Positions 1 to 63,291 of a stretch of 64,000 nt of DNA are shown here, piece after piece. Each line of letters opens with the position of its first letter. The stretch's first letter is position 1. Made by a program: the position numbers and the translations under genes. The notes below the pieces were generated by a model that ran no database searches, had not been told where the DNA came from, and saw only the letters and a program-made list of their open reading frames with translations. The DNA comes from a virus: positions 32,001-96,000 of the IMG/VR virus record IMGVR_UViG_3300036851_000176. One strand, 5' to 3'.

Positions 1-150
1 CCAGTTCGCTGTGATGAACTCATGGGGCATGCAAGACTCACCGCATTCTGGACAGCGAGGCGGGTAACTGGGACGGGTCCCGTCACAGGCGTAGTAGTCC
101 TGCCACAAACATTCGGAACAGGACACCACTCGGTAGGTTCGGTCACTCAT
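1..150 (-). CDS. Small zinc-ribbon protein (partial, runs off window)
   Basis: Hand translation MSDRTYRVVSCSECLWQDYY...PPRCPECGESCMPHEF has two CxxC motifs; ATGA overlap with the upstream gene's stop. Confidence 0.65.
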   Translation of the reverse strand, partial: MSDRTYRVVSCSECLWQDYYACDGTRPSYPPRCPECGESCMPHEFITANW

Positions 151-455
151 CGCTTCCTTTCTTTCCGTTTGCCGACCAATCCCTTTCCATCCACATCTTC
201 GATCTCTTCGAGCAGTCGGTCAAGCTTCTCCTGAATGGCCTCCGTGTCAGCGTTCTGGGACGACTGGACGAGGAAGATCATGAGGAAGGTGACGATCGTC
301 GTGGCGGTGTTGGCGATGAGTTGCCAGGTATCTGAAAAGTGAAAGGCTGGACCTGCGAGACCCCACAGCAGGCAGAGGACCAGAGCGATGACGAAGACAA
401 CCGGCTCACCGAGTTTCTCCGAGGCCCAGTCGGCAAACTTGTCGAAATGTTTCAT
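147..455 (-). CDS. Low-affinity iron permease (Fet4-like) family small membrane protein
   Basis: Signature GPAFHFSDTWQLIANTATTIVTFLMIFLVQSSQN..TEAIQEKLD; two TM helices. Confidence 0.8.
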   Translation of the reverse strand: MKHFDKFADWASEKLGEPVVFVIALVLCLLWGLAGPAFHFSDTWQLIANTATTIVTFLMIFLVQSSQNADTEAIQEKLDRLLEEIEDVDGKGLVGKRKERKR

Positions 456-465
456 GGTCCATATC

Positions 466-2796
466 CTACCGCCCCGCGTTCGGGTAAACCGCTCGGATCA
501 GTTCGTTCCATTTCTCGTAACTGGCATCGACACTCTGAGTCTCAGCGAATGCCCGTCCCTCTCGCCGGAACTGTGCTCGCTGTAGAGCGGCAGGCTCAGA
601 ATCCTCGAAGATCGCTCCCATCATCCGTAGGAATCGCGTCTGGTAATCGCTGTTGCGCGGCCACCCGGAGAGTCGAAGATGTCGGCTCGCCACGTTGTCT
701 TTCAGAGCCGCCAGATCGGTCGTGATGGGCAAGCAGCCAGCGGCCTGAGCCTGAACAGCGGTGAGACAGTATGTCTCCATGAAGTTCGTCGGATAGGCCC
801 AGATGTCGGCCGTGAGTTGGTGCTTGGCGAGAACCTCCGGAGGCTGACGACCCATCCACACAAGACCGGCCTCTTCTGCTCCTAGCGATTCCCACTGATT
901 CAGGATCGTTTCTTTGAGGTTAGCGATGTAGTGTCCAGGGTTCTGAGCGAGGATCTTATCGATGTAGTTCCACCCATAGAACACTTCGAGAGTCGCATCG
1001 GGCATCATCTGACGCAGACTCGGCCAAAGCGCGAGTAGCGTCTCCAGCCCTCGATCAGGAGAGGAAGACCAGATGAATTTATGGCCGTCATCGCTGCGTG
1101 CTTCCGGGTACAAACTAAGATCAATCCCATTGGGAATGACGACCATCTTGTCTACGGGAATCCCGTAGAGGTTGTGAAGATGTGTCCGATGCCAATTCGA
1201 GATGGGCACGATCGCATCCGGCTGACCGGCCACCTCTCGCAACGATGGACCAATGTTCACGTCGTGTAGCCAAAGGAACTTGGCCTTAGCGGCGATTGGT
1301 CCTGCGAAAGGGATAGCCGCGCGACTGGAGATGAAAACCGTGTGTGGCTCGTTTGGAATGAAGTCCTCTGACTTCCAGTATTCCACTCCGTCTGGACCGA
1401 TCCCTTCAGCGTCCCCCGGGCAGCCGAAGACGCTCACTCGCCACCCGTCCGCTGCGAATCGGGGAGCGAGTTCGAGCACGAGCGTCTCGGCGCCTCCGTG
1501 GCCTCCGGCGCGAAGGGTGTTCTGATTCCAGGGCTCGGCGATCGGGTTCGTGAAGAAGCAAATGCTCTTGTCTGGCTTCGTACCTCGCCGCTTTTCGAGT
1601 TGCTGTTCCGGCTTCGACTTCTTGCCCTGATCTGCGATCTTCTTGCGCAGAGCCTTGATACGCCCGCCGAGATCGTTGTTCGGGTCGTCCCAAATCTTCC
1701 TCGCCGCCGTGTAGTCAACCAAAGCGGGATCGTAAGCCCCCATCGCCTCAGCGGCGATTGCTCTCAGGAAGAGAGGGTTGAAGTCGTAGTTGTGCGGCTC
1801 CAGGGCCACCGTTGTCTCTGGACGCTCCAGATTGACAGCGATGTCCGCGAAAGAGTGCATGCGCGGCCAGTCTCGCAAGGACAGACAAGCCTTGGCGCAT
1901 CCGATCCAGCAGTCAGGCCAATCCGGTCGCTGACGAGCGGTCTGTAAATAGGCATCGATCGCCCCCGTATAGTCGCCCTTGACATGGAAGAGTTCTCCCA
2001 TGTGATAACCGGCCTTGTACTCCTGGTCGGGACTCTTCGGTGCATCCATCGAGAGGTAGCGTTTCCATGCGACGATCGCCGCCTCCGCTAGCATGACCTG
2101 ACGCATTGGATCCTTCTCGTGCAGCGCCGCCCCGTTCGCCTCATTGGCGAAGTAATAGGCATGACGAGGCTCGTTCGGCTCCTCCTTCAGCGCTCGCATA
2201 ATGATCTTCCGGTTCCGCTCGCGAGTCCCGCGCTCTTCCGACGAGTTGCGCAGATGCTTGATGAAAACTGGACCCTTGTACCGAAGCATCGGAGTGCCGT
2301 GCGGGGATCGAACGGTTTCATGGATCGGCCACTTCCAGGCCCAAGGCCAGTCCGTGCTGAAGATCCGCTCGCGCCACTGATCGATGACGACAGCTCCAGT
2401 CTTCGGCTCAATCGAGTAGGCGTAGCGCATGGTCGCGCCTTTGACGTAGGGGTTCTTCTCCAGGGCGTCAAACAGAGGGGAGAGACCTTCGGGTGCTTCC
2501 AGAACGTCGTCCTTGTCAACCCACAACCACCAGCCGTACTTATCCATCGGGATCATGTCGAGAGCGAGGTTGCGAGAGTAGGCAAAGTTTTCGATCCACT
2601 CACTGCGCGCCCAGGTAATCGGAGTTTCCGACCAGCGATTCCAAGAAGGGACATGAGACTTCTTGCCGTTGTAGTTGACGTAGATCGCCTCGATCTCTGG
2701 CTGTGCATCGAGAGAAGCCAAGAGGGGTTTCACTTCATCGGCGCGCCAGTCATCGCCCACGATCATGCTGATTGCTACGGTGCGGGGTCTGATCAT
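466..2796 (-). CDS. Bifunctional glycosyltransferase (GT2 + TPR + GT4)
   Basis: N-terminal NFAYSRN, WVDKDD (DxD) and PIHE; central TPR-like helices; C-terminal GGAET, WLHD, IPNGID, SSSPDRGL, ETYCLTAVQAQAAG. Confidence 0.9.
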   Translation of the reverse strand: MIRPRTVAISMIVGDDWRADEVKPLLASLDAQPEIEAIYVNYNGKKSHVPSWNRWSETPITWARSEWIENFAYSRNLALDMIPMDKYGWWLWVDKDDVLEAPEGLSPLFDALEKNPYVKGATMRYAYSIEPKTGAVVIDQWRERIFSTDWPWAWKWPIHETVRSPHGTPMLRYKGPVFIKHLRNSSEERGTRERNRKIIMRALKEEPNEPRHAYYFANEANGAALHEKDPMRQVMLAEAAIVAWKRYLSMDAPKSPDQEYKAGYHMGELFHVKGDYTGAIDAYLQTARQRPDWPDCWIGCAKACLSLRDWPRMHSFADIAVNLERPETTVALEPHNYDFNPLFLRAIAAEAMGAYDPALVDYTAARKIWDDPNNDLGGRIKALRKKIADQGKKSKPEQQLEKRRGTKPDKSICFFTNPIAEPWNQNTLRAGGHGGAETLVLELAPRFAADGWRVSVFGCPGDAEGIGPDGVEYWKSEDFIPNEPHTVFISSRAAIPFAGPIAAKAKFLWLHDVNIGPSLREVAGQPDAIVPISNWHRTHLHNLYGIPVDKMVVIPNGIDLSLYPEARSDDGHKFIWSSSPDRGLETLLALWPSLRQMMPDATLEVFYGWNYIDKILAQNPGHYIANLKETILNQWESLGAEEAGLVWMGRQPPEVLAKHQLTADIWAYPTNFMETYCLTAVQAQAAGCLPITTDLAALKDNVASRHLRLSGWPRNSDYQTRFLRMMGAIFEDSEPAALQRAQFRREGRAFAETQSVDASYEKWNELIRAVYPNAGR

Positions 2797-3431
2797 CCCT
2801 CGATCCCTTCAACACCCAGGTACGTCTCGACGCCATAGGCTTCTTCGATCATGTATGCGATCTCGCGAGGATCGATGATGGGTTTTCCGGCGTGAGCCGT
2901 CCCGTCTGCCTGGACGTAGAAATCGTAATTGTCAGGGACATAGAAATTGAGAGGGTAAGCGTACTCTGCGATGTACCCGTCTTGGTACTGAAGCACCCGG
3001 CCCCATAGTTGAACCTCGCCGATGATCGAGAACTTGGTGGTATAGAACGTGCTCCACTTGACCGCCGTCTCTACTTCCTTGACCGCGTAAATTCCGCATC
3101 CGTGCGTCTGATCCGGAGCACAATGATGAAGAGAGGACTGATCAATTCCCAGGTTCTTCTTCCACCTTCCTAGGCAGTGAGCGCGAGTGGCTCGCTTTCG
3201 GAGCCAAGGAATCGGGTGAGTGATTGATCTGATGAGAGCACGCCCTCGACCCGTTTTCTCGAAGCAGTCACAAACTCCCGGAGCGCAGACATTCCACGCT
3301 CGCCAAGCGATGATCGGTTCGATGTAGAAAGGAGCTTCGAGTTCGAAGGTGGCTTCGAGATTCTCGTCCGGCTGAGTCGATGCCATGGGTAGCGACGGTC
3401 GCCTTCCCATCATCCCCCATCCGTCAGGCAT
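2793..3431 (-). CDS. Hypothetical protein, Cys/His motifs
   Basis: AWRAW, AHC, HCAPDQTHGCGIYA, IIGEVQLWGRV motifs; overlaps both neighbours. Confidence 0.75.
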   Translation of the reverse strand: MPDGWGMMGRRPSLPMASTQPDENLEATFELEAPFYIEPIIAWRAWNVCAPGVCDCFEKTGRGRALIRSITHPIPWLRKRATRAHCLGRWKKNLGIDQSSLHHCAPDQTHGCGIYAVKEVETAVKWSTFYTTKFSIIGEVQLWGRVLQYQDGYIAEYAYPLNFYVPDNYDFYVQADGTAHAGKPIIDPREIAYMIEEAYGVETYLGVEGIEG

Positions 3432-3586
3432 TAGGCCGGAACAAGTTCGGGATCACGTTCGCGCGTGGGCGCGCGTTCGGGCAACGGATTCTCCTCAGGA
3501 ACAGGTCGTGGGTTCTCACGCGGAACCGGATCCTGCACCGGCTCAATCTCGATCTGCGGGACCTCAGAGGGCTTGCCAATCTCCAC
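3431..3586 (-). CDS. Small Pro/Glu-rich protein (51 aa)
   Basis: Not in ORF track; GGAGGA RBS, GTG start, MEIGKPSEVPQIEIEPVQDPVP...; TAATG overlap with next gene. Confidence 0.7.
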   Translation of the reverse strand: MEIGKPSEVPQIEIEPVQDPVPRENPRPVPEENPLPERAPTRERDPELVPA

Positions 3587-3595
3587 TCGTCCTCC

Positions 3596-3844
3596 TTACC
3601 CGCTGACGTACATGCCAGCAAGAGCGATTGAGCGCTTCTTCTGTGCGGCTGCGGCATCACCGGTCAAGTCGGCAATAACCGCCACATTCCGTTTGCCGAA
3701 GGTGCTGCCGTCCAGGAGAGCGGCCAACTCGGTCGCGTTGAGGGTCACCCCATCCTTGTAAGAAAACGCCTCCACGTCTACCCCGGCTCCGTTCACGTTC
3801 GCCAACTGCTCATCGGATCCGTTGATGATGGTGTAATTCGTCAC
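3596..3844 (-). CDS. Small putative virion protein (YTxxNG domain, copy 1)
   Basis: Paralogous to 7268..7507 and the C-terminus of 7527..8483. Confidence 0.8.
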   Translation of the reverse strand: MTNYTIINGSDEQLANVNGAGVDVEAFSYKDGVTLNATELAALLDGSTFGKRNVAVIADLTGDAAAAQKKRSIALAGMYVSG

Positions 3845-3855
3845 TCTAGCAGACC

Positions 3856-4293
3856 TTACGTGTAGGAGAGCTTAAAGGTCGTAACGAGGGAGAACGTGGA
3901 CTGCTTGGTCAGAGACAGACCGTCAATCCCGAACATGAGGGTGGATGAGGTGGCCGAAGGGGCGCCGTTGTGGAGCGCGATCCTCGTGATCGTCTTCGTG
4001 TTCAGGTTCACGTCGGCTGCGGGCAGCGTGTAAACGTGCGTCACAACGTGGGGAGTCGCCGCCGCTGGGCTGGTTGGCGTGGAGTCCAGAACAGCCGATG
4101 AAGACTGAAGGGTAGGTCCACCCGTGCCTCCGTTTCGGAGCGTGGTGTCCGTGTTCACGAAGTTGGTGTGCCCGCCGCCGGTTACTGCCCCGTCGTCCAG
4201 AGACATGTGCGTGATTGCGGCACCCGCTCCCGCCACACCGGAGGCGCGGTCGCCCACCATTTTGAGTCCCTGCGTGAAGTTGACGTTCGCCAT
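3856..4293 (-). CDS. Putative virion structural protein
   Basis: Thr/Gly/Ala-rich beta-type sequence within fibre cluster. Confidence 0.7.
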   Translation of the reverse strand: MANVNFTQGLKMVGDRASGVAGAGAAITHMSLDDGAVTGGGHTNFVNTDTTLRNGGTGGPTLQSSSAVLDSTPTSPAAATPHVVTHVYTLPAADVNLNTKTITRIALHNGAPSATSSTLMFGIDGLSLTKQSTFSLVTTFKLSYT

Positions 4294-4470
4294 TTAGTTC
4301 TCCGCCCGCTTATACCACGTAATGATGGCGTGACTTCCATCCTCGGCGCACTCGATGTTTTCGAAGCCAGCCAGTTTGGCGTCGGCGATGGCCTGATCGA
4401 GGGTCACACCCTCAGCCGGGGTAAGGATGCTGGAGACCTCTTCGATCCGGACTTCTGGAGTTGTTTGCAT
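4294..4470 (-). CDS. Small hypothetical protein
   Basis: MQTTPEVRIEEV...WYKRAEN fills the gap between fibre genes; the longer ORF call is an alternate frame of the Gly-rich gene. Confidence 0.6.
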   Translation of the reverse strand: MQTTPEVRIEEVSSILTPAEGVTLDQAIADAKLAGFENIECAEDGSHAIITWYKRAEN

Positions 4471-4483
4471 GGGCCACATCATA

Positions 4484-5782
4484 TCAGAGAGTAAAGGTGA
4501 TTCGAACTTCGCCCTTAGCTCCCGCCGAAGCAGCCTGGAGGGTCGAAGCCCCGCCTCCGCCCCCACCAATGATGTTTCCCGGGGTGGCAGGGACAGATCC
4601 GACCGCCGGGGAGGACGCTCCTGTGCCGCCCGTGCCAGATGTCCGGCCATCGATCGTCCCTGTTCCAGAGGCGTTCCCCATCGCCCCGGCTGTGCCGCCC
4701 GCTCCGCCAGCACCGGCAGCGACACCAGTGCCTCCCGTGCCGCCAGCGCCGTTATCACCGGCCCCTCCGCCGCCCCCGCCTCCAGACGTGTTAGCGCCGC
4801 CTCCGCCTCCGCCTGTTCCCCCGTTGAAGTTGCCGTTCGTGCCGGTACCGCCGGTCCCTCCCAGTCCGCCCGCTCCCTGTCCACCCACGGCGCCAGCGAC
4901 TCCCTTCAATCCCTTCTTGGCGACGACTACCGTGCTGTCGTAGGTGGAGTCGTTTCCGTCAGCGTCTACCGCTCCGCCTGCGCCGACGACGATGGCCTTG
5001 ACCTCACCTCCTGTGACCGTAACAGCGTTCGTTCGCCGATATTCTCCGCCTCCGCCTCCGCCGGATCCGTTAATGGTACCCATAGAGGCTCCTCCTCCGC
5101 CGCCTCCCCAAGCCTCCACCTTCAGAGATGTCACTCCGGAGGGGACAGTGAAGTTGTCGTTTGCAGTGTAGGCGAACGTATAGGTCCTGGCGGGAATCGT
5201 GATGGGGATACCAAGTTCGGTGTGAGTAATGTCGAAATTGGATACTGATGGAGCGATAGCGACCGAGTTGGTCGGTTCAATCTGGAACTTGTCCACGGTC
5301 GGAGAAACAGCGATCGAGGGCGCGTCAGGATTGATACTGATCTTGTCCACAGTCGGCGATACTGCAACTCCTAGAGCATCGTGGGTCGCCTCAAATTTGT
5401 CGATGGTGGGCGAGACAGAAACCAGCACAGCGTCCGGATTGATGGCGAACATGATCGACAGGGCAATGGCAACATTAAGAGCGCTGAAGAACATCTCCAG
5501 TTTGTCCACAGTCGGGGAAATGGAAACCCCATTGACGGTCACCACTTCAAAATTGTCAATGAACGCCGAGACCGCAATCATATGAGGATCGACTGCTCCG
5601 AAGCCAGGAATCCAGCGCACGATGGCATCGCCTCCTCCTCCTGCTCCTGGGACATCGATCCACGTTGTGCCGTTATAGAGCCTTCCCTTCTGGGAGGCCG
5701 TGTTGTAGTAGAACGCCCCCTCGTCTACTCCGGTCGGATCGGTGTCGGAAGGAGCGAGGACAAGGATGTCAAGAATCTTCAT
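4484..5782 (-). CDS. Fibre protein with SPTVDK repeats and Gly-rich C-terminal domain
   Basis: N-terminal YYNT..W knob motif, ~18-aa repeats, FTVPSGVTSLKVEAWGGGGGG...GAKGEVRIT. Confidence 0.85.
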   Translation of the reverse strand: MKILDILVLAPSDTDPTGVDEGAFYYNTASQKGRLYNGTTWIDVPGAGGGGDAIVRWIPGFGAVDPHMIAVSAFIDNFEVVTVNGVSISPTVDKLEMFFSALNVAIALSIMFAINPDAVLVSVSPTIDKFEATHDALGVAVSPTVDKISINPDAPSIAVSPTVDKFQIEPTNSVAIAPSVSNFDITHTELGIPITIPARTYTFAYTANDNFTVPSGVTSLKVEAWGGGGGGASMGTINGSGGGGGGEYRRTNAVTVTGGEVKAIVVGAGGAVDADGNDSTYDSTVVVAKKGLKGVAGAVGGQGAGGLGGTGGTGTNGNFNGGTGGGGGGANTSGGGGGGGAGDNGAGGTGGTGVAAGAGGAGGTAGAMGNASGTGTIDGRTSGTGGTGASSPAVGSVPATPGNIIGGGGGGASTLQAASAGAKGEVRITFTL

Positions 5783-5922
5783 GCTACGTCAGTCCATACG
5801 CCAGCAATGAGAATGCGCAACTTGTGTGAGGTCGTGTTGTAGTAGAGGCTTCCGTCGTCGAGTCCGGTCGTGTCCGGGTCACTCGACTTCTGTCCCAAGT
5901 AGATCACGTCAAGCAACTTCAT
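5779..5922 (-). CDS. 47-aa paralog of the N-terminus of the downstream fibre
   Basis: Hand translation [47 protein letters not shown]; TGATG and ATGA overlaps. Confidence 0.75.
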   Translation of the reverse strand: MKLLDVIYLGQKSSDPDTTGLDDGSLYYNTTSHKLRILIAGVWTDVA

Positions 5923-6839
5923 CAGTGAACCACCGCTCGGTAAGCATTGGAGGCCGGAGGAAGCAGGAAGATGATGTCCACCGTGTTCGTCGTGGTGTGC
6001 TGAACGGTCGGGAAGACCTCATCCCATGGCGATGAGTTTCGGTAGACGCGAACGTCCAAGTCGCGAGTGCCGAGGTTGTGAGTGACCGTGATGGTCGTGC
6101 TCGTTCCGTCTCCGATCGTTGCCGAGAATCGCGGGGCGTTCGATCCCGTCGCTCCTGCGGGGCCTGTAGCTCCTGTTGCTCCTTGAGTTCCCGCTGATCC
6201 GGTGGCACCAGTGAATCCTCTATCTCCCTGAAGTCCTTCTGGGCCGAGCGGTCCGGTCGCGCCTGTAGATCCTGGCCCTCCATCGCTACCAGCAGGTCCG
6301 GTCGCGCCTGTAGATCCGCTCGCGCCCACCTGTCCCGTCGCACCCGTCGATCCACTCCCGGTAGCACCAGTTGCACCGACAGTTCCAGCAACCCCGACTG
6401 GACCCGTCGCTCCAGTCGCGCCTGCGCCAGTAGCGCCCGTTGATCCCCGTGGACCAGTTTCTCCAGTCGATCCAGTTGCTCCAGTTGTTCCTGCCCCGGT
6501 TGCCCCTGTGGCACCAGTTGCTCCACCGGGATCTCCTTGCGGGCCAGTGGCTCCGGTGGCACCAGTCGGTCCACCGGGGTCTCCGGGATCCCCTTTGGGT
6601 CCTACGACAGGAGCAATTTCAACAACAGAAGTTCCCAGTTCAAGGACGCTAACTTCGGCGTCTCCCTCCTGGCGAATGACAACCTTCGTGATCGTCTCTT
6701 CAGTGACGATATCTGTATCGTCCCCCGACTCGATAACGACCTGCGCGGGAAGTTCCTCGACGCGCAGTTCGGAGCCAGAGGGGTTCTGGACTACGAGTTT
6801 CTCATCGGACTCGTTGATCTCGATTTTCGGATCGCTCAT
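5922..6839 (-). CDS. Collagen-like fibre protein
   Basis: Long G-X-Y (GAT/GST/GPT) run; C-terminal [14 protein letters not shown] domain. Confidence 0.9.
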
Positions 6840-7231
6840 GCGCCCTGCCGTCTATGAAGAACAATTCCTCCCTCCATGAGGCGAACCACGTCGCCGCTCC
6901 CGAAGGTGATGTAGAGGTCATAGACGCCCTGCGCTCGATGCTTGTCCCAATCGAGAGCGGCAGTCGTCTCGTCGTCCATCTCGATCTCGATCGTTCCGGC
7001 CACTCCTCCGAGAGTGATTCCATCTCCGGTTGTGAGGGTGAGAAGCGTCGCTGTCTCCGCGCCAGGGTTGGGACTTCTGTCGCGCTCGCGCTTCGTGATC
7101 ACCAGAGAAGCCGTGCATCCGGTGAGGTTTTCGGGGTCCCCGTTCTCGTCGAGCCAGGTTCCCTGGAAGCGAAAGGTTGCCCCCTGGTTGACCGTCAGGG
7201 CGTATTTAGCTGGTCGGGTCGGCAGAGCCAT
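6836..7231 (-). CDS. BppU N-terminal-like (Ig-type) structural protein
   Basis: [17 protein letters not shown]...YDL.IT..G.V.RLMEG pattern. Confidence 0.7.
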
Positions 7232-7267
7232 AGCACAATCCTACCAGGATCGCAAATTCCCTGGAGG

Positions 7268-7507
7268 TTACGGCAGCGTGTTCGCGTACGTCGAAGCGAT
7301 AGCGATGACTCGCTTGATGGCCTTGGCGTCTACGGCGCCCGTCTGATCCTTGATCACGGCAACGCCCTTCAGGACGCAGAGGGCAGCCAGTTCAGCGTCA
7401 GTGAGGGTTACTCCGTCTCGATAGGAGAGGGAACCCACGTCTACGCCTCCGACGTTAACGTTCAGGAGGTCAGCCTCGGTTCCGTTGATCACGGTGTAAG
7501 CTACCAT
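7268..7507 (-). CDS. Small putative virion protein (YTxxNG domain, copy 2)
   Basis: Paralogy within window. Confidence 0.8.
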   Translation of the reverse strand: MVAYTVINGTEADLLNVNVGGVDVGSLSYRDGVTLTDAELAALCVLKGVAVIKDQTGAVDAKAIKRVIAIASTYANTLP

Positions 7508-7526
7508 GGCGGCAGTGTACCACGGC

Positions 7527-8483
7527 CTAGGCCAGGGTGTTCAGGTACTTTCCGGCCTTCCAGATCGCCTTAGTCTCGGCATGGGTGAGGTCATCGGCGA
7601 AAACCATTACCCCCTTCGTGGCGCAGAGCGCCGCCAGTTCCGTATCGTTGAGAGCGACTCCCTGTCGATAAGACATGCTGGCTACATCTACTCCCGCAGC
7701 ATTCACATTCGAGAGAGTCTCCAGAGTTCCGTTGACGACCGTGTAGGTGACTGCTGCTGCGGCTGATCCGGCTGTCCACAGGTCCGAAATGTTCTGTGCG
7801 GTGAAGAGGGTACTGTGATACGAAACCTCATCCACGATCGCGTCAGGCTGGCCGAGAAGTTGGAACGAGTCGAGCGCGATGGACGTTCCGACGATGAACG
7901 GCGTGTTCGCGGCGACACCCGCCAGCACACCCTGTGACGCGCCCCCGTTCGCGCCCACGTTGTCAAAGTAGAGGTTGACATCTCCAGCGCTGTCGTACGT
8001 CACCGCGCACATATGCCGGACGCCAACAGATGGACTCACCTTGATTTGGTAATCAGTCTGCGTGGTCGGAGCCGTGAAAACAGAGAATCCCAGGAGGTCT
8101 CCGATGTCAGGGTTGGCATACTGAACTACCCATCCCTCCGCGTTCGCTCCCCCGCCTCCGATGTCCTGGTCCACGCAGTTAACGATGTCTCCGGAGACGG
8201 CCGTGCGCAGTTTGAGCCAGAAGATGAGGGTGAAGTTGGTGGGCAGGAACGCGGCCTCACCCGCGCGTCGAACTCCGCCGGAGGCGTCTCCGGTCGCGGC
8301 CTCTAGCCCAAGCGCCTTGACTGAATCGTTGACGATCCCGTCCGGGTGCGTGAACGTCTCAACGTACGTGCCGTCGCGGTTGTCGATGCCGCTGTCCTCG
8401 GCGACTGTTCCCGACGTTTCTTCTAGGCGCCAGATGAGGATCGGGTCGGCATCAATCGCAAGAAGTTCATCCAGGTAACTCAC
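7527..8483 (-). CDS. LamG/ConA-like lectin-fold protein with C-terminal YTxxNG domain
   Basis: WRLEETSGT.A.DS, FTLIFW, HMCAVTYD, LYFDN, IVDEVSY. Confidence 0.85.
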   Translation of the reverse strand: MSYLDELLAIDADPILIWRLEETSGTVAEDSGIDNRDGTYVETFTHPDGIVNDSVKALGLEAATGDASGGVRRAGEAAFLPTNFTLIFWLKLRTAVSGDIVNCVDQDIGGGGANAEGWVVQYANPDIGDLLGFSVFTAPTTQTDYQIKVSPSVGVRHMCAVTYDSAGDVNLYFDNVGANGGASQGVLAGVAANTPFIVGTSIALDSFQLLGQPDAIVDEVSYHSTLFTAQNISDLWTAGSAAAAVTYTVVNGTLETLSNVNAAGVDVASMSYRQGVALNDTELAALCATKGVMVFADDLTHAETKAIWKAGKYLNTLA

Positions 8484-8839
8484 AGTTCGTACCTCTGTAG
8501 GTATTCAGCACCGGCTTTGAGTAGGGCCGGGTCGTCCTGAAGGAGGCCCAAACCTCGATTGCAGGTGTTGCAAAGGAGTCCCCTGACCTGTCCTGTCTTG
8601 TGGCAATGATCCACTGACAGATGGCGCCGTCCTTGCGCCTGCTCCTCCGGCTTGCGAGGACAAAGAGCACAATGCCCTCCCTGAGCGGCCAGCATGGCGT
8701 AGTAGTCCTCCTGCGTCAGACCGTGCTTCCTGAGGATTCCGCGCCAGCGCGAGTTTCTGTTGTGCTCAGCGGCTCTCTCCGGATTTCGCGCGCACCATCT
8801 CTGATGTGGAGTCAGACCGTCCTCGATCTTGTGGCTCAT
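8480..8839 (-). CDS. Endonuclease VII-like HNH endonuclease
   Basis: QGGHCALC, SVDHCHKTGQVRGLLCNTCNRGLG. Confidence 0.92.
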   Translation of the reverse strand: MSHKIEDGLTPHQRWCARNPERAAEHNRNSRWRGILRKHGLTQEDYYAMLAAQGGHCALCPRKPEEQAQGRRHLSVDHCHKTGQVRGLLCNTCNRGLGLLQDDPALLKAGAEYLQRYEL

Positions 8840-9966
8840 AGCTCATACCATCCGGCTCCCCACAGCGTGTACAACTGCTTGAACCAGCGATCAAACTCCT
8901 TGCCGACCACTTCGAGGCTGTAGTTCTTCTCGGCGTACTTGCGGATCTGCGCGGGCTTGCACTTCTTGATCGCCTCTTCGGTGGCGTCCATCCCCTGCTT
9001 CAGCGTGCGGAAGCGCCGACCAGCTACCGGCTGCACGGTTTCCGCGAACGCGCCCCAGTCTGAGGCCACGACAGGCGTGCCAGAGAACATAGCCTCGACG
9101 GCCACTCCGCCGAACGGTTCGATGTAGATCGTTGGGACGATCACCGCTGCTGCACGAGACATCAAGTCAGCTCTCTGCTGAGCGCCCACCTCACCGGCGT
9201 AGAACAGATCTCCTTCCAGCCGACCTTCAGAATAGGCAATGTGATTAGGACCCCATTCCAGCGCGCCAGGTCCGGCGACAACGAGTTTGCGTCCAACTTG
9301 ACGAGCGATTTCAGCCGCGATGTGCGGCCCCTTTCGCTCGACAAGTCTCCCGATGTAAAGAAGGTAGTCGTCCTTCTTGTCCGAAACGTAGAAGTCGTCC
9401 GGATCGAAGAAGTTCGGGATCACTTGATCGAACGCCCGTCCGTTGATGAACTCTCGATTCTGGTGATAGACGCTCTGTTTGCCGTAGACGTGGTGCATCC
9501 ACGCATAGGACTCGAACGCACAGAATTTCGTGAAAATCCCCTCGTATCCAACGCCCCACTCGATCGCCAACAGGTTCGTCGCGTCAGCGATCGGCTTTTG
9601 ACAGTTACCACCGATGAGGAGAAGCAAATCTTGATCGTCTTGCACCCGCTCGCGAATCGCCGAGATGGCGCGATCGTTCATCGTTTTCCAGTAGATCTGG
9701 TTTGGATCCCAAATGAGAGGAGTCAGAACGGTGTCGAATCCTTCACCGCCAAACCAACCGGCTCTCTCTTCCTCGGTGATGAGCATGACATGCTCAGCCT
9801 GGTCGGCAGGAACCTCGTTCTGCTCACCGGCATAGAGGACGATGTCGTACATAGACGACATCATCTTGCAAAATTTGAGAACCTTCATGGTATACGCGCA
9901 ACTTAGATATTCCCTCGTTGTTGCGGTATGGGGAAGGCTCACCAGGTGCAACCTCTTCTTGCTCAT
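8836..9966 (-). CDS. GT4 family glycosyltransferase
   Basis: YIGRLVERKG, EPFGGVAVEAM (Ex7E); likely start MSKKR at 9966 after GAGGAG RBS. Confidence 0.92.
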   Translation of the reverse strand: MSKKRLHLVSLPHTATTREYLSCAYTMKVLKFCKMMSSMYDIVLYAGEQNEVPADQAEHVMLITEEERAGWFGGEGFDTVLTPLIWDPNQIYWKTMNDRAISAIRERVQDDQDLLLLIGGNCQKPIADATNLLAIEWGVGYEGIFTKFCAFESYAWMHHVYGKQSVYHQNREFINGRAFDQVIPNFFDPDDFYVSDKKDDYLLYIGRLVERKGPHIAAEIARQVGRKLVVAGPGALEWGPNHIAYSEGRLEGDLFYAGEVGAQQRADLMSRAAAVIVPTIYIEPFGGVAVEAMFSGTPVVASDWGAFAETVQPVAGRRFRTLKQGMDATEEAIKKCKPAQIRKYAEKNYSLEVVGKEFDRWFKQLYTLWGAGWYEL

Positions 9967-9994
9967 CCGCACTCCTCGAACTCGTGAAGTCGCA

Positions 9995-10687
9995 TCATGC
10001 AACCTGAGAAAAGCCGAATTGTCTTTGAACAGATGGGTGTTTGGTTTCATCAGCGACGAAGTTTGCGTCCGTTCCTTGCTTGATGAGATGACGACCGTTG
10101 CCCGAAAAGTCAGGTAGTGGAGCGGCCATGCCGTAGATCGGCGCGTAGATCATCAAACCCGATCGACGAATGAGAAGAGGAGAAACTCCCTTGTAGAGAA
10201 GACCGATCTGCGCATCCGTAAGAATTGCGTTCCAGAGAGAAAACTCAGCAATCCATCCTGCCATCCCTGATCCGGCGGAACCGCCAGAGTAGGCGTTGGC
10301 AACTCCCAACGCAACCGGCCCATCGTTAACTCCTCCAGTTCCATCTCCAGAAGTGGTCTGAATGACTCCATCCAGAGCACATGTGATCTCGTCACTTCCA
10401 CGTCTGCCGACGATGTGATGCCAAGCGTTCAGGGTAACCGCCGTCGAGTGCATCTTGTTCGGGTGCCCAGAGTTTGTCTTGGCCCCGAACTGAACTTGGT
10501 TTGTCCCTCCGCCCACACCGGCGTCCAGGTTCCAGCGCGGCTCACCTCCGCCTGGGTTCTTGCGAACCAACATCCCTGCTGTGGTCATGTAGACCCAAAT
10601 AGACACTGTGATGTTGCTGTCTACCTGCCAAGTGGTGTCGGTAGTGCCGAACCCCTTGTCGTTTCCTCCGGGAACTTTCCAGGACAT
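9995..10687 (-). CDS. LamG/ConA-like domain protein
   Basis: ITVSIWV, WHHIVG, LDGV, GWIAEFSLWN.ILT..QI. Confidence 0.85.
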   Translation of the reverse strand: MSWKVPGGNDKGFGTTDTTWQVDSNITVSIWVYMTTAGMLVRKNPGGGEPRWNLDAGVGGGTNQVQFGAKTNSGHPNKMHSTAVTLNAWHHIVGRRGSDEITCALDGVIQTTSGDGTGGVNDGPVALGVANAYSGGSAGSGMAGWIAEFSLWNAILTDAQIGLLYKGVSPLLIRRSGLMIYAPIYGMAAPLPDFSGNGRHLIKQGTDANFVADETKHPSVQRQFGFSQVA

Positions 10688-11545
10688 TTAGTTCACATCA
10701 CAGACCAGCCAAGCACCGTGCAGTTCAGTGTTGACTGTCAGATCGTCATTGGCGTGAGCGCCATCGTGTTTCACTTGGACAATGAGAAGGTCTCCGGCAG
10801 AAGGAGCGTTTGTAAGTGTAAAGGTAACCTTCTTGCGAAGACGAGCAGTCGCCGGAACGGTGATGTCCTGAGCAGTTTCGGCTGTCAACGTCGCCGGATT
10901 AAGGGATCCTCCATCAGCTACGTTCTTGCTCAGAACAATCAAACGTGTCACACCGGAAGTAGCGTTCGCACTGATTTCAAGCACGATCTTCGCAGCCGGA
11001 GTTGCGGCGAGATTCTCTGGCACGCGCACTCGTCCAAAAAGGTTGCCCAACACATCCTTCGTAAATTCCCAGTGCCAGTTCTCGTAAGCGGTCAGGACAG
11101 AAGCCGTTGGGAATACGTTTCCTTGGTTCGCATTTTGCTCAGGATTCTGAAGATCGATCGGTCGATCTTCGGTATGGGTGGCAGCGCCCGCACCCGTCGC
11201 TCCTGCGGGTCCGGTTGCTCCAGTGGATCCAACACCTCCTGATGCGCCAGTGGCTCCTGTTGCCCCAGCGGCTCCGGCTGATCCGGCTGTTCCGGTTGCT
11301 CCTGTTGATCCTTGTGGACCCGTGGCTCCCGTGTTTCCGTCAATTCCGTCTGTTCCATCCGCACCAGTCGGGCCTGTTGTTCCTTGCGGGCCAGTTGCTC
11401 CTGTTGCCCCAGCAGATCCGTTCGACCCTGCTGGTCCTGTTGCGCCCGTAACTCCCGCACCCGTCGCTCCCGTCGCACCAGTGGCACCATCTCCTGAGCC
11501 GCCCAGTGGCCCTCGGAGTTGCTCGTTGTCAATAAGAGTCGCCAT
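10688..11545 (-). CDS. Collagen-like fibre with C-terminal beta-sandwich domain
   Basis: GAT-rich G-X-Y run followed by ~160-aa globular domain. Confidence 0.88.
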
Positions 11546-11560
11546 TTCTAGATCATACCT

Positions 11561-12541
11561 CTACCACGAAATCACAATGACTTCGCCACGAGCGCCAGCG
11601 CCGCCCACTGCGGACCCTGACGTTCCGGTGCCCGCCCCACCGCCACCGCCGCCGGGGATTCCTCCCGCTCCTCCTGTTGCTCCGGTACCTGATTTCCCGT
11701 TTCCGCCACCCCCGCCACCGTTAGCCAATCCCGTGCCGGTACGGGACGCTGGTGTTCCTCCTGGGTCTCCTGCGTTTCCCCCATCCCCGGCAGTTCCAGT
11801 GACGGCAAAGTGAGATCCACCGCCTGAATCTCCCACAGATGCACTGTCATTCCCCCCGCCGCCGCCACCGCCTCCGCCATACTGAGAGATGCAAGCACTT
11901 CCGATATTTCCACTTGAACCTCCTCCGCCGCCGAAGACGGGGATGCCCATGGCTTGCCCGATAGAGTAGTCTCCTCTTCGTCCGCTTGACCCACCGAACA
12001 TGGAAGCAGGCATGTTGGCTTGACCCGCAACTCCTGCGCCGCCTCCGGGTCCTCCACCCGCTCCCGGAGTAATGGTCGCATTGTTAGTTGATCCGTTTCC
12101 TCCGACCCCAAATCGTCCGCCCCCGCCTCCGCCAGCGCCCTGAGCGGTTCCACCACCGCCGCCACCCGCTCCGCCCCCAAACGCTTTGATCCAGTTTCCG
12201 AATGATGATGGATTTCCTGCTGTTCCCGCCGCGCTTCCTGTTCCTCCAGCTGCCTGAGCGCCGACCGTGACAGACTCGGTAACTGCTAGTGAAGACGTGG
12301 ATACCAATAGCCCAGCCCAGGCTCCGCCTCCACCTCCGCCTCCGCCTCTCGTGGTAGTTGTTCCGCCTCCTCCACCACCACCTCCGATGCAGATGATGTA
12401 TGACCAACGTGCGCCGAGCGGACGAATCCAAGTTCCGTTTCCAGTGAACACCTGAACATCGACCCCTTGACCAGCATTTTTTCCCATTAGTCGGGAGTCG
12501 AGAATTTCAAGAAGCCAAGGTGGTGGTGTGATGTTCTGCAT
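11561..12541 (-). CDS. Glycine-rich virion protein
   Basis: DVQVFTGNGTW.RP...CIGGGGGGG...GARGEVIVISW. Confidence 0.85.
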   Translation of the reverse strand: MQNITPPPWLLEILDSRLMGKNAGQGVDVQVFTGNGTWIRPLGARWSYIICIGGGGGGGGTTTTRGGGGGGGGAWAGLLVSTSSLAVTESVTVGAQAAGGTGSAAGTAGNPSSFGNWIKAFGGGAGGGGGGTAQGAGGGGGGRFGVGGNGSTNNATITPGAGGGPGGGAGVAGQANMPASMFGGSSGRRGDYSIGQAMGIPVFGGGGGSSGNIGSACISQYGGGGGGGGGNDSASVGDSGGGSHFAVTGTAGDGGNAGDPGGTPASRTGTGLANGGGGGGNGKSGTGATGGAGGIPGGGGGGAGTGTSGSAVGGAGARGEVIVISW

Positions 12542-12547
12542 CGCGTC

Positions 12548-13513
12548 TTACCAGCAAATGACGATCACTTCGCCGCGACCTCCTGAGCCACTGACGCCAC
12601 CCGTCGTCGTTCCAGCCCCTCCGCCACCACCGCCACCCCCTGGAACCTGTCCGCTGCCTCCAATTCCTCCTGTGGTGGTGCTACCACCTCCGCCACCGCC
12701 ACCAGATCCCGCTAGACCAGATCCCGTTCTTGACGCAGGAGTCGTTCCATTTGCTCCGGTAGCGCCACCGGCGCCGCCTCCTCCGACGTTAGTGGTTGGT
12801 ACTCCACCACTTCCTCCTCCGGCGCCGCCAGAGACCGCTGCGTTTCCTCCTCCTGATCCTCCCCCTCCTCCGCCAAACACGGATGCCCCGGCCGAGTTAC
12901 CGGCCGCACCGGAAGCGCATCCTGCCCCGCCGCCACCGCCGTAATGGGGCACGCCCAGGTTCGTGGTAAGAAATGCCGTGCTGCTGGTTTGCCCTGCCCC
13001 TCCACCTCCGACTCCTGTGGGCATAGCTCCAGCCGCAGTAGCTCCCCCAGGGTTACCACCCGCGCCACCCGCTGTAGATCCGACAGACCCTCCGCCCTGT
13101 AGTCCTCCGCCGCCACCACCCCCAGATGTTGTGGATGATCCACCAGCGCCGCCTCCCCCGCCACCACCAGCCTGCAACCATCCTCCGAACGATGAAGTTC
13201 CTCCAGCCCCTCCTGCGCTGTTTGCAGCAGCATTTGAACCAGCCGCTCCGACCGTAACGGATTCGGTAACGCCTAGAGAGGAAACAAGAACAAGAGCATC
13301 CTGTCTAGCTCCACCTCCACCTCCACCCCCACCGGAGCCTGTTCCGGATCGACCACCACCACCTCCACCGCCGCCTCCGATACAGATGATCCATGCCCAG
13401 CGCTTTCCGAGCGGTCTCGTCCATGTACCGCTGATGGTGAAAACCTGAACGTCAACCTCGTCGAGCGATCCGAGGTTCGCGTCGAACAGACCCAGTGCTG
13501 GCTGCTTAGCCAA
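12548..13513 (-). CDS. Glycine-rich virion protein (paralog of 11561..12541)
   Basis: DVQVFTISGTW.RP...CIGGGGGG...GGRGEVIVICW; TTG start. Confidence 0.85.
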   Translation of the reverse strand: MAKQPALGLFDANLGSLDEVDVQVFTISGTWTRPLGKRWAWIICIGGGGGGGGGRSGTGSGGGGGGGGARQDALVLVSSLGVTESVTVGAAGSNAAANSAGGAGGTSSFGGWLQAGGGGGGGAGGSSTTSGGGGGGGLQGGGSVGSTAGGAGGNPGGATAAGAMPTGVGGGGAGQTSSTAFLTTNLGVPHYGGGGGAGCASGAAGNSAGASVFGGGGGGSGGGNAAVSGGAGGGSGGVPTTNVGGGGAGGATGANGTTPASRTGSGLAGSGGGGGGGSTTTGGIGGSGQVPGGGGGGGGAGTTTGGVSGSGGRGEVIVICW

Positions 13514-13516
13514 GGC

Positions 13517-13834
13517 TTAACTCTGATCGAGACCGGATACCGTGAGAGTCAAACCAGTCCCGCCCGTGTTCGCCTGAAGAGTTTCAGTTCCAGCCATGAC
13601 AATGAAGCAATCATGATTGAGAATTCCGCCTGCTGGAATCGAGATTTGAGGGATGATGAGGTTGGCGTCAAGAACTCCACCGATTCCCAACTTGAAGAGA
13701 ATTGCGGCAGCACTCCCGTTCACAACTCGGATGTTCCGCAGCGTATAGGTATGTCCAGTTGTTCCAGTAAACGGTGTGCTCGTACCGCTGGCGAGGTTCG
13801 CAGGTCCGAAGATTCGTGAAAGGATGTTAGGCAT
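13517..13834 (-). CDS. Small beta-sandwich virion protein
   Basis: LRNIRVVN...ISIPAGG...ETLQA...LTVSG pattern common in phage fibre clusters. Confidence 0.75.
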   Translation of the reverse strand: MPNILSRIFGPANLASGTSTPFTGTTGHTYTLRNIRVVNGSAAAILFKLGIGGVLDANLIIPQISIPAGGILNHDCFIVMAGTETLQANTGGTGLTLTVSGLDQS

Positions 13835-13857
13835 AGCGGTATCTTAACAGCCCGGAA

Positions 13858-15423
13858 TCATGAGATGGCCCATTGAGTAGCGAAATCCGCTGCTCCTGTT
13901 GCTCCAACGGGTCCGGTCGCTCCTGTCGCGCCCGCAACACCGGCCGGTCCAGTTGATCCGGTCGCTCCAGCGGTTCCTGTAGCACCAGCAGGACCGGTGG
14001 CTCCCGTTGCACCGTCGAATCCATCGTCTCCATCTGCTCCGCTCGCTCCCACCGGGCCTGTCGCTCCTGTTACTCCTGCTCCCGTTGCCCCGGTCGCCCC
14101 TACTGCACCAGCCGAACCAGTGGCTCCTGTGGCACCAGCCGCGCCCGCCGATCCTGCCGAGCCAGTTGCTCCTGTGGCTCCCGCTGTACCTGCGCCCGTC
14201 GCACCGGTTGCTCCAAGTGAAACAGTCGCCATCGCAAACTGGTATGTCGCCAGAAGTGTGTCTCCCGTTAGAGGGGCCGTAACAAATGTGATCGTGCTTC
14301 CGGACAGCGTGTAGTCTGCGCCACCAGCGCTCTGAAGAACTCCGTTGCGGTACAACTCCAGAGTTGTGCTTGGAGTCGGAGAATTTGCCAGCGTGTACAT
14401 GACGTTGGCTCCATTGATTGCGCCTCCGGGCGTCTCGTTCCAGATGATGTTGGCTGCTGAGAGTGCTCCCGTCGCTCCTGTGGATCCGTCAATCCCATCT
14501 GTTCCATCTACTCCCGCCGGACCGACAGGGCCAGTGGCGCCCGAGGCCCCGATGTCACCGGTTGGACCTGTTGCGCCTGTGGCGCCATTTGCGCCCGTGG
14601 CGCCCGTAGCACCGTCAATTCCGTCAATTCCGTCAATGCCCGCTGGCCCCGTTGCTCCGGTCGCTCCACCCGATCCTGTGGCGCCTGTGGCTCCGGCCGA
14701 TCCAGCCGCGCCAGTAGCTCCCGTCGCTCCGTCCACTCCCGTTCCGGTACCTCCGCCTCCGCCCGCTCCTCCAACAACCATGCTGGTCGGGCCGGGAGCG
14801 CCAATCGGGCCAGGGTCTCCTCGACGGGCTACGAGTTGCCAGTATTCGTTCGAGCGCTTGTTGTCGGCGGCGGGATCAATTCCCGCTGGAACATCCTTCT
14901 TCGGCTGATACGTGCTACCGAGACGGAAGACAAGAGGAGCAAGGGCCTTGTACTCGTCCTTGCGATTCCACGTTACGACTTCAGGGAACTCTCCAGCGGG
15001 TCCGGTCGCTCCATCCGCACCGGGCGCTCCGTCAGCGCCGTCACGACCATCCTTTCCATCCGCTCCGTCCCGACCGGCCGGTCCCGTCGCACCGGGCGTC
15101 CCATCTTCACCGTCCTTGCCATCTGCTCCGGTCGATCCCTTCGGTCCCTGCGGCCCAGTTTCTCCCTTCGGCCCCTGCGCTCCCGTTGGACCTCGACGAC
15201 CGGTCGGACCGAAGAACCCCTGCGGTCCAGGAGGGCCTTCGCCTCCCGGAGGTCCTTCTGGCCCGGTCGCGCCGGGAGGTCCAGTCGGCCCGACATCTCC
15301 TGGATCGCCCTTCTTGCCCGGAGCGCCGAACTGACCCGCAGGGCCGGTAGCGCCTGTCGCGCCGGTCTCTCCGGGCTTGGGGGCGACCACACGAGTTGGA
15401 ATCGTGTAGTTCTTCTTACCCAT
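13858..15423 (-). CDS. Multi-segment collagen-like fibre protein
   Basis: Three G-X-Y segments separated by a CBM5/12-like knob and a WNETP...LLATYQ domain. Confidence 0.9.
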
Positions 15424-17375: not shown

Positions 17376-17478
17376 GCGAAAGCCTCCCAGGGTCACGGGA
17401 GGCCATGGGTACTCCCTGGTTTTGCCAGTGGGTGATGTTCGAACACTCCGATCGAATTGCTAGCCACGAAAGTGTACA

Positions 17479-62163: not shown

Positions 62164-62176
62164 TCAGACCGCCCCC

Positions 62177-63268: not shown

Positions 63269-63291
63269 GGTTGTTCACACCTCCTTTCGGG

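Follow-up and report, generated by a model that had tools for sequence, protein, structure and literature searches.

Putative glycosylation of threonine-rich collagen-like fibres by a stand-alone GT4 transferase encoded after the portal gene of an uncultured phage

The collagen-like protein BclA of Bacillus anthracis reportedly carries O-linked oligosaccharides on the Thr-rich G-x-T collagen stalk that it contributes to the hairs of the exosporium. In Clostridioides difficile, SgtA, a transferase that combines a GT-A domain with tetratricopeptide repeats (TPRs) and is encoded beside bclA3, is described as adding N-acetylglucosamine (GlcNAc) to Thr of the GPT collagen repeats of BclA3 (PMC7157674). 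Viral systems of a related kind include Mimivirus, in which L230 is described as hydroxylating Lys and glucosylating hydroxylysine and which encodes the collagen-like protein L71 (PMC9614988), and mycobacteriophage Che8 and its relatives, in which, according to papers citing Freeman et al. 2023, phage transferases modify virion proteins and form a glycan shield. These parallels are already known. Here, we report the analysis of a block of fibre and glycosyltransferase (GT) genes at positions 466 to 15,423 of a 64,000-base stretch of DNA (hereafter, the window), which corresponds to bases 32001-96000 of the 146,625-bp virus record IMGVR_UViG_3300036851_000176. The block encodes three Thr-rich collagen-like proteins, a stand-alone transferase of the GT4 family and a GT2-TPR-GT4 fusion; what is new is that the collagen-linked enzyme is told apart from the head-linked one, with a complete, collagen-less relative as a natural contrast. 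A literature search, with a coverage short of most subscription journals and supplements, turned up no report of collagen-like bacteriophage fibres being glycosylated, nor any paper about one of the two enzyme families.

The locus resembles the SgtA/BclA3 pair, as that pair is described, in that a transferase gene adjoins a Thr-rich collagen-like gene, and differs from it in setting, with a phage virion in place of a spore. The enzymes also differ: the transferase that tracks collagens here is the stand-alone GT4, of GT-B fold, not a GT-A-TPR protein. The fusion, which over residues ~1-400 can be likened to SgtA by its layout of a GT-A domain followed by TPRs, is longer by one GT4 domain and, in relatives, does not go together with collagens. 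As in BclA, a G-x-T stalk would be part of a surface fibre, and a collagen encoded beside a GT4 homologue in a Bacillota metagenome-assembled genome has a weak BclA_C-like C-terminus (9e-6, below cut-off); a Pfam scan found no BclA_C domain in the block collagens, in which respect they differ from BclA. Like Mimivirus, as described, this virus combines collagen-like proteins with an enzyme that would glycosylate them. Unlike in the L230 system, the repeats here are Thr-rich and a 2OG-Fe(II) oxygenase of family PF13640 was not found in the genome, which makes a hydroxylysine route unlikely. In Che8, the acceptors are described as the C-termini of capsid and tail-tube subunits, not collagen repeats, and a tblastn search of 50,697 phage records retrieved no mycobacteriophage homologue of the fusion (20 matching records) or of the GT4 (51 matching records).

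The data show which genes are present, their domain homologies, the conservation of catalytic residues, synteny and co-occurrence; we infer the acceptor, sugar, site and fibre position, in a reading that we regard as evenly poised between right and wrong: the region would be a composite, in which a fibre cassette with a collagen-linked GT4 has been inserted beside a separate, conserved glycosylation module. The cassette (approximately window 3596-15423) occupies the slot between the portal and fusion genes and encodes predicted trimeric, Gly-Ala-Thr-rich collagen fibres along with glycine-rich and lectin-fold partners and a protein resembling the collar protein LtfC, which probably anchors a fibre to the tail. 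The soluble GT4 would act in the cytoplasm, ahead of assembly, drawing on a host nucleotide-sugar and attaching the sugar to the collagen stalks of the phage, with either Thr itself or a first sugar as the acceptor; the outcome would be glycosylated lateral fibres, with G-x-T sites on four proteins, one of which is a fibre of the tail module. The second module consists of the fusion (466-2796) together with three GT-A/GT2-like enzymes and one methyltransferase fragment that are encoded past the window start; it travels with head and packaging genes in many uncultured phages. The GT2-TPR part of the fusion is built like protein transferases that attach a first sugar, and the module would start and extend a glycan on at least one virion protein. 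It may serve the collagens of this phage as well, although these would not be its required substrate.

The data support the stand-alone GT4 (8836-9963, minus strand) as the transferase of the block that is specifically tied to Thr-rich collagen-like genes. It belongs to a very large family (more than 3453 homologous proteins), with at least 559 relatives in viral contigs and 195 in a set of one genome per bacterial species, and 80 loci were kept from each source. We scored an open reading frame (ORF) as collagen-like if it had a minimum of 10 triplets, in runs of 8 or more, and looked for such ORFs within 10 kb of the transferase gene; the detector recovers all five collagens of the genome under study. 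Such an ORF was present at 62 of the 80 viral GT4 loci, on the same strand in 61 cases, upstream of the GT4 gene in 54, within 1.5 kb in 43 and within 100 bp in 24. The control consisted of loci of the fusion, comparable in GC (medians 0.45 vs 0.46), of which just 2 of 79 had a collagen-like ORF. When loci were collapsed by common flanking gene families, collagens remained in 13/18 GT4 contexts vs 1/11 fusion contexts. The linked collagens are also distinguished by composition, with Thr accounting for at least 0.4 of the Y positions in 56 of 62 (median 0.65), compared with 18 of 80 viral collagens sampled by pattern. The GT4 loci span GC values of 0.34 to 0.68, with no increase in Thr richness at higher GC; a GC artefact was rejected as the source of the bias, the linked collagens being equally Thr-rich at locus GC below and above 0.45.

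The pairing extends beyond viruses and into cultured phages. Collagen-like ORFs, mostly ending just before the GT4 gene, are present at 51 of the 80 bacterial loci, and these collagen-linked loci come from Bacillota, Saccharibacteria, Chitinophaga, Alphaproteobacteria and Acidimicrobiia; all ten bacterial collagen neighbours that were tested match PF01391. Among cultured phages in the tblastn search, the family is confined to Synechococcus myoviruses (51 records, 34% identity). In S-CAM7, the genes of two GAT/GST collagen-like proteins (gp014 and gp015) come immediately before the GT4 homologue, in S-CBWM1 that of a GPT/GAT 'tail fiber protein' (gp076) does, and both arrangements sit among baseplate and tail-fibre genes. 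Two genes past the S-CAM7 homologue, just ahead of the gene for a 1958-aa tail fibre, lies a 2OG-Fe(II) oxygenase gene (gp018; 10975-11571 of our locus L162), a possible candidate for a collagen hydroxylase.

The C-terminal domain of the stand-alone GT4, a nucleotide-sugar-binding Rossmann domain, scores 62.9 bits against PF00534 (cut-off 26.4) and 58.1 bits against PF13692, and the residues R206, K211, E282 and E290 are invariant in all 29 aligned sequences; E282 and E290 make up the EX7E motif, and R206 and K211 are the donor-site Arg and Lys. The ORF extends to 10050, homologues have ~365 aa, and the family profile spans window 8842-9957. The protein lacks a membrane segment, and the family profile (1.3e-182) finds a single copy in the genome.

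Fibre glycosylation is, in our view, the best explanation of the linkage between GT4 and collagens, with confidence in it and doubt about it in rough balance, and a number of observations tell against it. Neither enzyme family has a member of known chemistry, and it is through gene linkage that the acceptor would be assigned. Among solved structures, the nearest relatives of the GT4, namely, a tetrahydrobiopterin glucosyltransferase, AviGT4 and PimA, act on small-molecule, lipid or glycan acceptors, and none is a protein O-transferase. Collagens are missing from 18 of the 80 viral and 29 of the 80 bacterial GT4 loci, including all 11 Nocardia loci listed, and in the phage studied here, a LamG gene intervenes between the GT4 gene and the nearest collagen gene in one direction, and four genes do so in the opposite direction. 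The loci are interrelated, not independent, so that the significance of the counts in a Fisher test is overstated, and the link could in part reflect a common preference for tail-fibre modules. Approached from the collagen side, none of 80 sampled viral collagen loci, and none of the 18 Thr-rich ones among them, contains a GT4 homologue, with flanks that were often short; this shows just that most phage collagens do not have this GT4 nearby.

A different explanation is that the block is a displaced tail-fibre or host-range cassette, that the GT4 came along for some other reason, such as making or trimming an adsorption glycan, and that the virion proteins are unglycosylated. The collagen-side count is in line with it, as is the finding that the GT4 loci have nothing in common beyond the repeats, the LtfC-like protein and the GT4 itself, with other fibre domains not conserved, and that relatives have a hot-spot of variation in the slot behind the portal. 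A passenger transferase, however, sits poorly with the Thr-at-Y bias of the linked collagens, with the two dozen loci in which GT4 and collagen are within 100 bp, with the recurrence of the gene pair in bacterial chromosomes and with the invariant catalytic residues, and we consider this explanation rather unlikely.

The block comprises 19 co-oriented minus-strand ORFs from TerL through the fusion, listed here in transcription order with identities from Pfam and PHROG scans of the window proteins, and followed by a fourth collagen gene that lies elsewhere.

17479-19335, minus strand: TerL (Pfam and PHROG scans)
15456-17396, minus strand: portal protein, Mu type (PF06074, 4e-11), with 40-53% identity to its counterparts at 18 related viral loci
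13858-15423, minus strand: collagen-like fibre protein, 521 aa, its 107 triplets divided among four G-x-y runs (PF01391, 9e-41)
13517-13834, minus strand: 105-aa protein, no Pfam or PHROG match
12548-13513, minus strand: glycine-rich protein, 321 aa, 40% Gly (PF21722 Gly_rich_2, 3.9e-6; phrog_863 'tail fiber assembly', 7.7e-18)
11561-12541, minus strand: glycine-rich protein, 326 aa, 37% Gly (PF21722, 1.2e-5; phrog_863, 1.3e-10)
10688-11545, minus strand: collagen-like fibre protein, 285 aa, with 30 triplets and a 160-aa non-collagen C-terminal domain (PF01391, 6.4e-11)
9995-10687, minus strand: LamG/concanavalin-like lectin-fold protein, 230 aa (PF13385, 1.7e-14)
8836-9963, ORF to 10050, minus strand: stand-alone GT4, GT-B (PF00534, 3.5e-17)
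8480-8839, minus strand: endonuclease VII, HNH-type (PF02945, 6.6e-24)
7527-8483, minus strand: 318-aa protein, no Pfam match at E <= 0.1 and no PHROG match
7268-7507, minus strand: 79-aa protein, a small-domain copy (similarity to the other copies)
6836-7231, minus strand: LtfC/p132-like beta-sandwich protein (PF23926, 4.8e-5, below the family cut-off; phrog_1084, 4e-20)
5922-6839, minus strand: collagen-like fibre protein, 305 aa, beta-rich at the N-terminus and ending in a domain of 70 aa (PF01391, 6.9e-15)
4484-5782, minus strand: glycine-rich fibre-like protein, 432 aa (PF21722, 5e-8)
3856-4293, minus strand: 145-aa Ser/Thr-rich (26%) protein, no family match
3596-3844, minus strand: 82-aa protein, a small-domain copy (similarity to the other copies)
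2793-3431, minus strand: 212-aa protein, no family match; its stop overlaps the start of the fusion gene
466-2796, minus strand: GT2 (GT-A)-TPR-GT4 fusion, 776 aa (phrog_13126, 3e-23; PF13439, 5e-13)
48897-51557, minus strand: fourth Thr-rich collagen-like protein, 886 aa, inside the tail module (PF01391, 7.7e-21; CBM_5_12, 8e-5, below the family cut-off)

Much of the picture drawn by the initial annotation agrees with this list. The co-oriented block directly after the portal is borne out by the ORF calls, with every long ORF from 19335 down to 466 on the minus strand, and it is indeed far from the tail module, which occupies 44.5-61 kb. All three glycine-rich proteins match PF21722, and a GT4 and a GT2-TPR-GT4 fusion are present, the GT2 domain of the latter being recognized through phrog_13126 and through profile matches to GmaR and SunS. 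Of the two proteins assigned to LamG, 9995-10687 belongs there, whereas 7527-8483, unmatched in Pfam and PHROG, gave E >= 1.1 in a BLAST comparison with the LamG protein. The endonuclease VII gene, absent from that account, is probably a mobile insert that splits the cassette; a 52%-identical endonuclease VII fragment occurs elsewhere in G001, a complete relative described below.

The three block collagens had been called dominated by GAT and GST triplets, which is somewhat strong: the two together make up 32-41% of triplets, and GAT is indeed the commonest triplet in each protein (31/107, 9/30 and 14/44 in the order of the list). The collagen assignment itself is firm, with long Gly-x-y runs and PF01391 scores of 137.9, 42.3 and 55.0 bits, above the cut-off of 27.2. 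Thr occupies 37% of Y positions in 13858-15423 and 50% in both 10688-11545 and 5922-6839, and in the first of these proteins, G-x-T was observed 48 times against an expectation of 17.7. The tail-module collagen (48897-51557), with GAT in 25 of 80 triplets, shows the greatest G-x-T excess in the genome and is a possible candidate for a substrate acted on from a distance. Together, the four Thr-rich collagens contain ~146 G-x-T sites. A broader 'G-x-T tag' on structural proteins was rejected, the motif being over-represented in these four collagens only in this genome.

Among the remaining products of the block, 11561-12541 is an N-terminal paralogue of 12548-13513, with 62-77% identity over 26-37 residues; the latter had no match among the phage records, for which a low-complexity filter is the probable cause. 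A domain of ~78 aa occurs in three minus-strand copies that are 48-55% identical, namely, 7268-7507, 3596-3844 and the C-terminus of the 318-aa protein (7527-7760, residues 245-317), and may be a fibre tip or a chaperone. The 79-aa copy has a 50%-identical homologue in the viral locus L083, where the gene order is collagen, two small ORFs and GT4. Apart from this small domain of 79/82 aa in L083, the non-collagen fibre tips are not common to the GT4 loci, as would be expected for host-range modules. The 212-aa protein falls into Atlas clusters that are all labelled 'hypothetical protein' and originate from viruses and Actinomycetota, and its gene is unrelated to those found at the same position, upstream of the fusion, in relatives.

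Comparison of the viral GT4 loci reveals a recurrent cassette consisting of an LtfC-like protein, a collagen, the GT4, a 300-aa protein (phrog_7578) and tail-fibre-like proteins, at times with a small transferase between collagen and GT4. LtfC-like homologues were found in 28 of the 80 loci and directly precede the collagen gene where both were called; here, 6836-7231 directly precedes the collagen gene 5922-6839 with a 4-base overlap. The profile of this family weakly matches LtfC of DT57C (8hqz_Q, 6.3e-4) and p132 of T5 (7qg9_R, 0.012), and PF23926 scores 24.3 bits against a cut-off of 27; the top match of the profile, 26dk_M (4.6e-11), is annotated 'Structural protein' and has no assigned role. 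LtfC is described as a dodecameric collar that anchors lateral tail fibres, and the T5/DT57C arrangement of LtfC (p132) and LtfA shares with the present one a small beta-sandwich protein encoded directly ahead of a fibre gene (PMC10713586). The matches are weak, the fibre is collagen-like here and a coiled coil there, and the arrangement in this phage is known from sequence.

The LtfC/p132-like protein beside collagen 5922-6839, together with the tail-fibre context in S-CBWM1 and S-CAM7, faintly suggests that the collagens would be lateral tail fibres rather than head fibres. The cassette lies after a capsid gene and three small genes in some viral loci and between TerL and portal in others (L095, L102, L113 and L140, and also L153, whose contig ends before the portal). 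With the same cassette in the latter place, gene position says little about the site of fibre attachment. The attachment to head or neck put forward by the initial annotation rested on gene position, and the LtfC-like protein and the cyanophage context point elsewhere.

The GT2-TPR-GT4 fusion behaves differently from the stand-alone GT4. Pfam detects only its GT4 half and weak TPR_1/TPR_2 matches, the GT2 domain having no Pfam match, and phrog_13126 covers residues 66-395. A profile built from 34 fusion homologues matches the solved structures of GmaR (PDB 22ao, Listeria; 1e-12) and SunS (PDB 7msp, SPbeta; 3.7e-10) over residues 6-245, and these are the best solved matches to the N-terminal domain. 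GmaR modifies Ser/Thr of flagellin, and SunS modifies Cys of a lantipeptide-like acceptor; neither has a C-terminal GT4 domain, in which they differ from the fusion. Residues 230-342 match the TPRs of O-GlcNAc transferase (OGT; 6.5e-13) and consensus TPRs (to 2e-17), human OGT being the best natural TPR match, behind an engineered TPR protein, and residues 500-757 match GT-B domains of the MshA/GlgA type. D94, D96, D97, H159, E160 and E674 are invariant in all 34 sequences, with an Asp-x-Asp type metal site present, and the second Glu of EX7E in the GT4 half is Gln here and in 10 of the 34 homologues. Membrane segments are absent from all transferases examined.

A protein collection holds 65 full-length homologues, one being the phage's own copy and the other 64 showing 35-58% identity. 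In viral contigs, the fusion as a single-protein query retrieved nothing; an alignment of homologues was required and yielded at least 296 relatives, from which 79 loci were kept. Fibre-block genes had no homologues in these loci except for collagen-repeat matches, one endonuclease match and two weak hits, which were to the LtfC-like protein in L012 and to a segment of collagen 13858-15423 in L067. The relatives form a close clade, with portals 40-53% identical in 18 loci and TerL found in 15, and a distant clade of ~25% identity. In the close clade, replication genes are followed by TerL and portal and then, across a gap of 0-8 kb, by the fusion, lysis genes, a 287-aa GT-A gene and two GT2 genes, with TerL, portal, gap and fusion kept in this order in 18 loci and the fusion abutting the portal gene in nine. 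In the distant clade, the order is TerL, portal, a scaffold-sized gene, a major capsid protein (MCP; phrog_1328, 8e-33), a small gene, the fusion, and more transferases and methyltransferases, with the sequence MCP, small gene, fusion recurring across the loci that were mapped. Among all 79 loci, a capsid family is present in 36, a TerL family in 41, and at least one head or packaging family in 62, a count that includes one unannotated family termed 'portal' by position only.

The portal gene forms the upstream border of the variable slot that carries the fibre block. In relatives, this portal-fusion slot of 0-8 kb is empty or holds other large proteins, which are very large (569-2412 aa) in L003, L004, L011, L012, L013, L019, L021 and L024. 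G001, the contig of L021, is a 102,756-bp relative with direct terminal repeats and 100% CheckV completeness, the fusion of which is 43% identical to ours. Its slot proteins (66995-73115) are Ser/Thr-rich, at 20-28% vs about 10% elsewhere. Neither a match to PF01391 nor a run of at least six triplets occurs anywhere in G001, and the profile that finds our own GT4 copy finds no gene of that family in it. Given the 2 of 79 loci with a nearby collagen and the collagen-less G001, the fusion is not dedicated to collagens. In three relatives, a gene between portal and fusion (L015 5124-6077, L018 9055-10041 and L020 9390-9989) encodes a conserved Gly-Asn-Pro-Trp...Gly-Arg/Gln-Phe motif near the N-terminus, which resembles head-morphogenesis (MuF-like) proteins.

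Taken together with the GT4 counts, these findings divide the original proposal. The initial annotation had both enzymes as dedicated transferases, which stands for the GT4 and fails for the fusion, and had named a lack of co-occurrence with collagens in relatives as evidence against itself; such a lack is what we find for the fusion, and the GT4 does co-occur. In its full form, a single oligosaccharide on Thr of collagen fibres attached to the head or neck would be the joint product of the GT4 and the two fusion domains and would give an exosporium-like coat. The presence of a fusion with an SgtA-like GT-A and TPR layout fits that picture, as does the single co-oriented block straight after the portal, and collagen 5922-6839 has a match, in its C-terminal domain, to the corresponding end of phrog_2647 (1.3e-17), which bears the label 'head decoration'. 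Yet 77 of 79 loci and one complete genome retain the fusion in the absence of collagens, the LtfC/p132-like protein indicates a tail collar, the cyanophage cassettes lie among baseplate and tail-fibre genes, and in five viral loci, one of them cut before the portal, the cassette is found between TerL and portal. We regard this version as quite improbable.

The composite reading has its own difficulties on the side of the fusion. Its conserved partner is the portal or capsid gene, not a collagen; the distant-clade capsid proteins encoded beside it have no Ser/Thr-rich C-terminal tail; and in the close clade, lysis genes separate the fusion from the further transferases of its module, an arrangement with which a role at the cell envelope would be compatible as well. 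The last point belongs to an explanation under which the transferases alter the host envelope (cell-wall glycopolymers) late in infection, for instance to block superinfection or to keep progeny from adhering to debris, and the collagens are plain, unglycosylated receptor-binding fibres. Genome papers of the kind represented by PMC7029224 and PMC10202952 usually read phage transferases in host-recognition regions in this manner, and the solved GT4 relatives include the lipid mannosyltransferase PimA. Against envelope modification, the GT4-collagen pair is kept across the very different envelopes of cyanobacteria, Bacillota, Saccharibacteria, Chitinophaga and Alphaproteobacteria, which fits a common protein acceptor better than a wall polymer; the enzymes are devoid of membrane segments; the GT2 domain of the fusion groups with the protein-modifying GmaR and SunS and is accompanied by TPRs; and G001, which lacks collagens, also lacks the GT4. 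On balance, we find envelope modification unlikely.

The searches of the genome, which is 95% complete by the CheckV estimate, bear on the remaining options for donor and acceptor. Epimerase and nucleotidyltransferase families were not found in it, so the sugar donors would be host nucleotide-sugars, and a special sugar made by the phage is unlikely. Nor was a hydroxymethylase of the ThyA (thymidylate synthase) family (PF00303) found in it, which argues against glycosylation of phage DNA as a protection from restriction, the textbook role of phage transferases as presented in PMC9614988 and PMC12619734. The TPRs and the GmaR/SunS-type GT2 domain likewise indicate a protein acceptor, and the transferase genes lie in the late structural and lysis blocks, outside the replication module at 20.7-42.8 kb. 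DNA as the substrate is, in our estimate, highly improbable.

The wider genome provides the context of the block. IMG/VR classes the record as linear, and despite this, the final ~170 bases of the contig repeat the first ~170 with one mismatch. GC within the window is 54-63%. The portal query had its best matches in Gordonia and Rhodococcus phages, at 22% identity, and yielded no cultured close relative among the 50,697 phage records. The tape measure gene of the tail module lies at 53317-57078 and the major capsid gene at 62177-63268 on the minus strand (phrog_29, 3.3e-36), so that the fibre block is distant from both tail module and capsid gene. The replication module is situated between TerL and the capsid/tail structural block, and this peculiar layout, in which the whole replication module parts TerL and portal from the capsid and tail genes (window 17479-66800), is common to G001. 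A plus-strand frame of 463 aa (62051-63442), without a family match, overlaps the capsid gene and, being longer, misleads longest-ORF calling; a hidden Markov model of the distant-clade capsid family did not recover the capsid gene of this phage. The gene next to the capsid gene, 61546-62163, encodes an Ig-domain protein.

On the other side, directly after the fusion gene, window 147-455 (minus strand) encodes a 102-aa protein of the low-affinity iron permease family (PF04120, 1e-33) with one strongly hydrophobic segment. The locus continues past the window start on the same strand, in the order small membrane protein, LAGLIDADG-like ORF, 287-aa GT-A, weak GT2, FkbM-like methyltransferase fragment, GT2, collagen and lysis cassette (locus L001), which adds three GT-A/GT2-like genes and brings the wider locus to at least six GT domains. 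The family profile of the 287-aa protein matches chondroitin synthase and SpsA, both of GT-A fold. The LAGLIDADG-like ORF (L001 17052-17663, minus strand), read as such from its sequence and without a family match, lies between the fusion gene and the next transferase gene; it and the endonuclease VII gene look like mobile endonucleases at module junctions. The collagen that opens the lysis cassette (L001 13208-14089, minus strand; genome 27208-28089) is a 293-aa protein with a membrane segment, poor in Thr (9% of Y positions) and rich in Pro, Arg and Glu; its non-repeat part has short homologues at the same place in L005 and L007, and it may be a lysis or spanin-like protein.

A wider proposal, which we put forward tentatively and with more doubt than confidence, is that the LtfC-like collar, the G-x-T collagen and a dedicated Thr-O-glycosylating GT4 may form an undescribed 'glyco-collagen' cassette common to the tailed phages of several bacterial phyla and to many bacteria, that, separately, the portal- or capsid-linked GT2-TPR-GT4 fusion of hundreds of uncultured phages may start a protein-linked virion glycan, and that this phage, having both, may be sugar-coated on its head or core as well as on its fibres through two independent enzyme systems. 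With the gene pair also present in the cultured cyanophages S-CBWM1 and S-CAM7, the idea of glycosylated fibres is directly testable.

If it is true, sugar coats on virions would be a common feature of phages of cyanobacteria, actinobacteria and other hosts, not an oddity of a few mycobacteriophages, and such coats could affect host recognition, particle stability and the way in which antibodies view therapeutic phages. The fusion, with more than 296 relatives in viral contigs, would be a second, uncharacterised and head-linked candidate for protein glycosylation, and the GT4 family would be a candidate for the enzymes that decorate collagen-like surface proteins in many bacteria.

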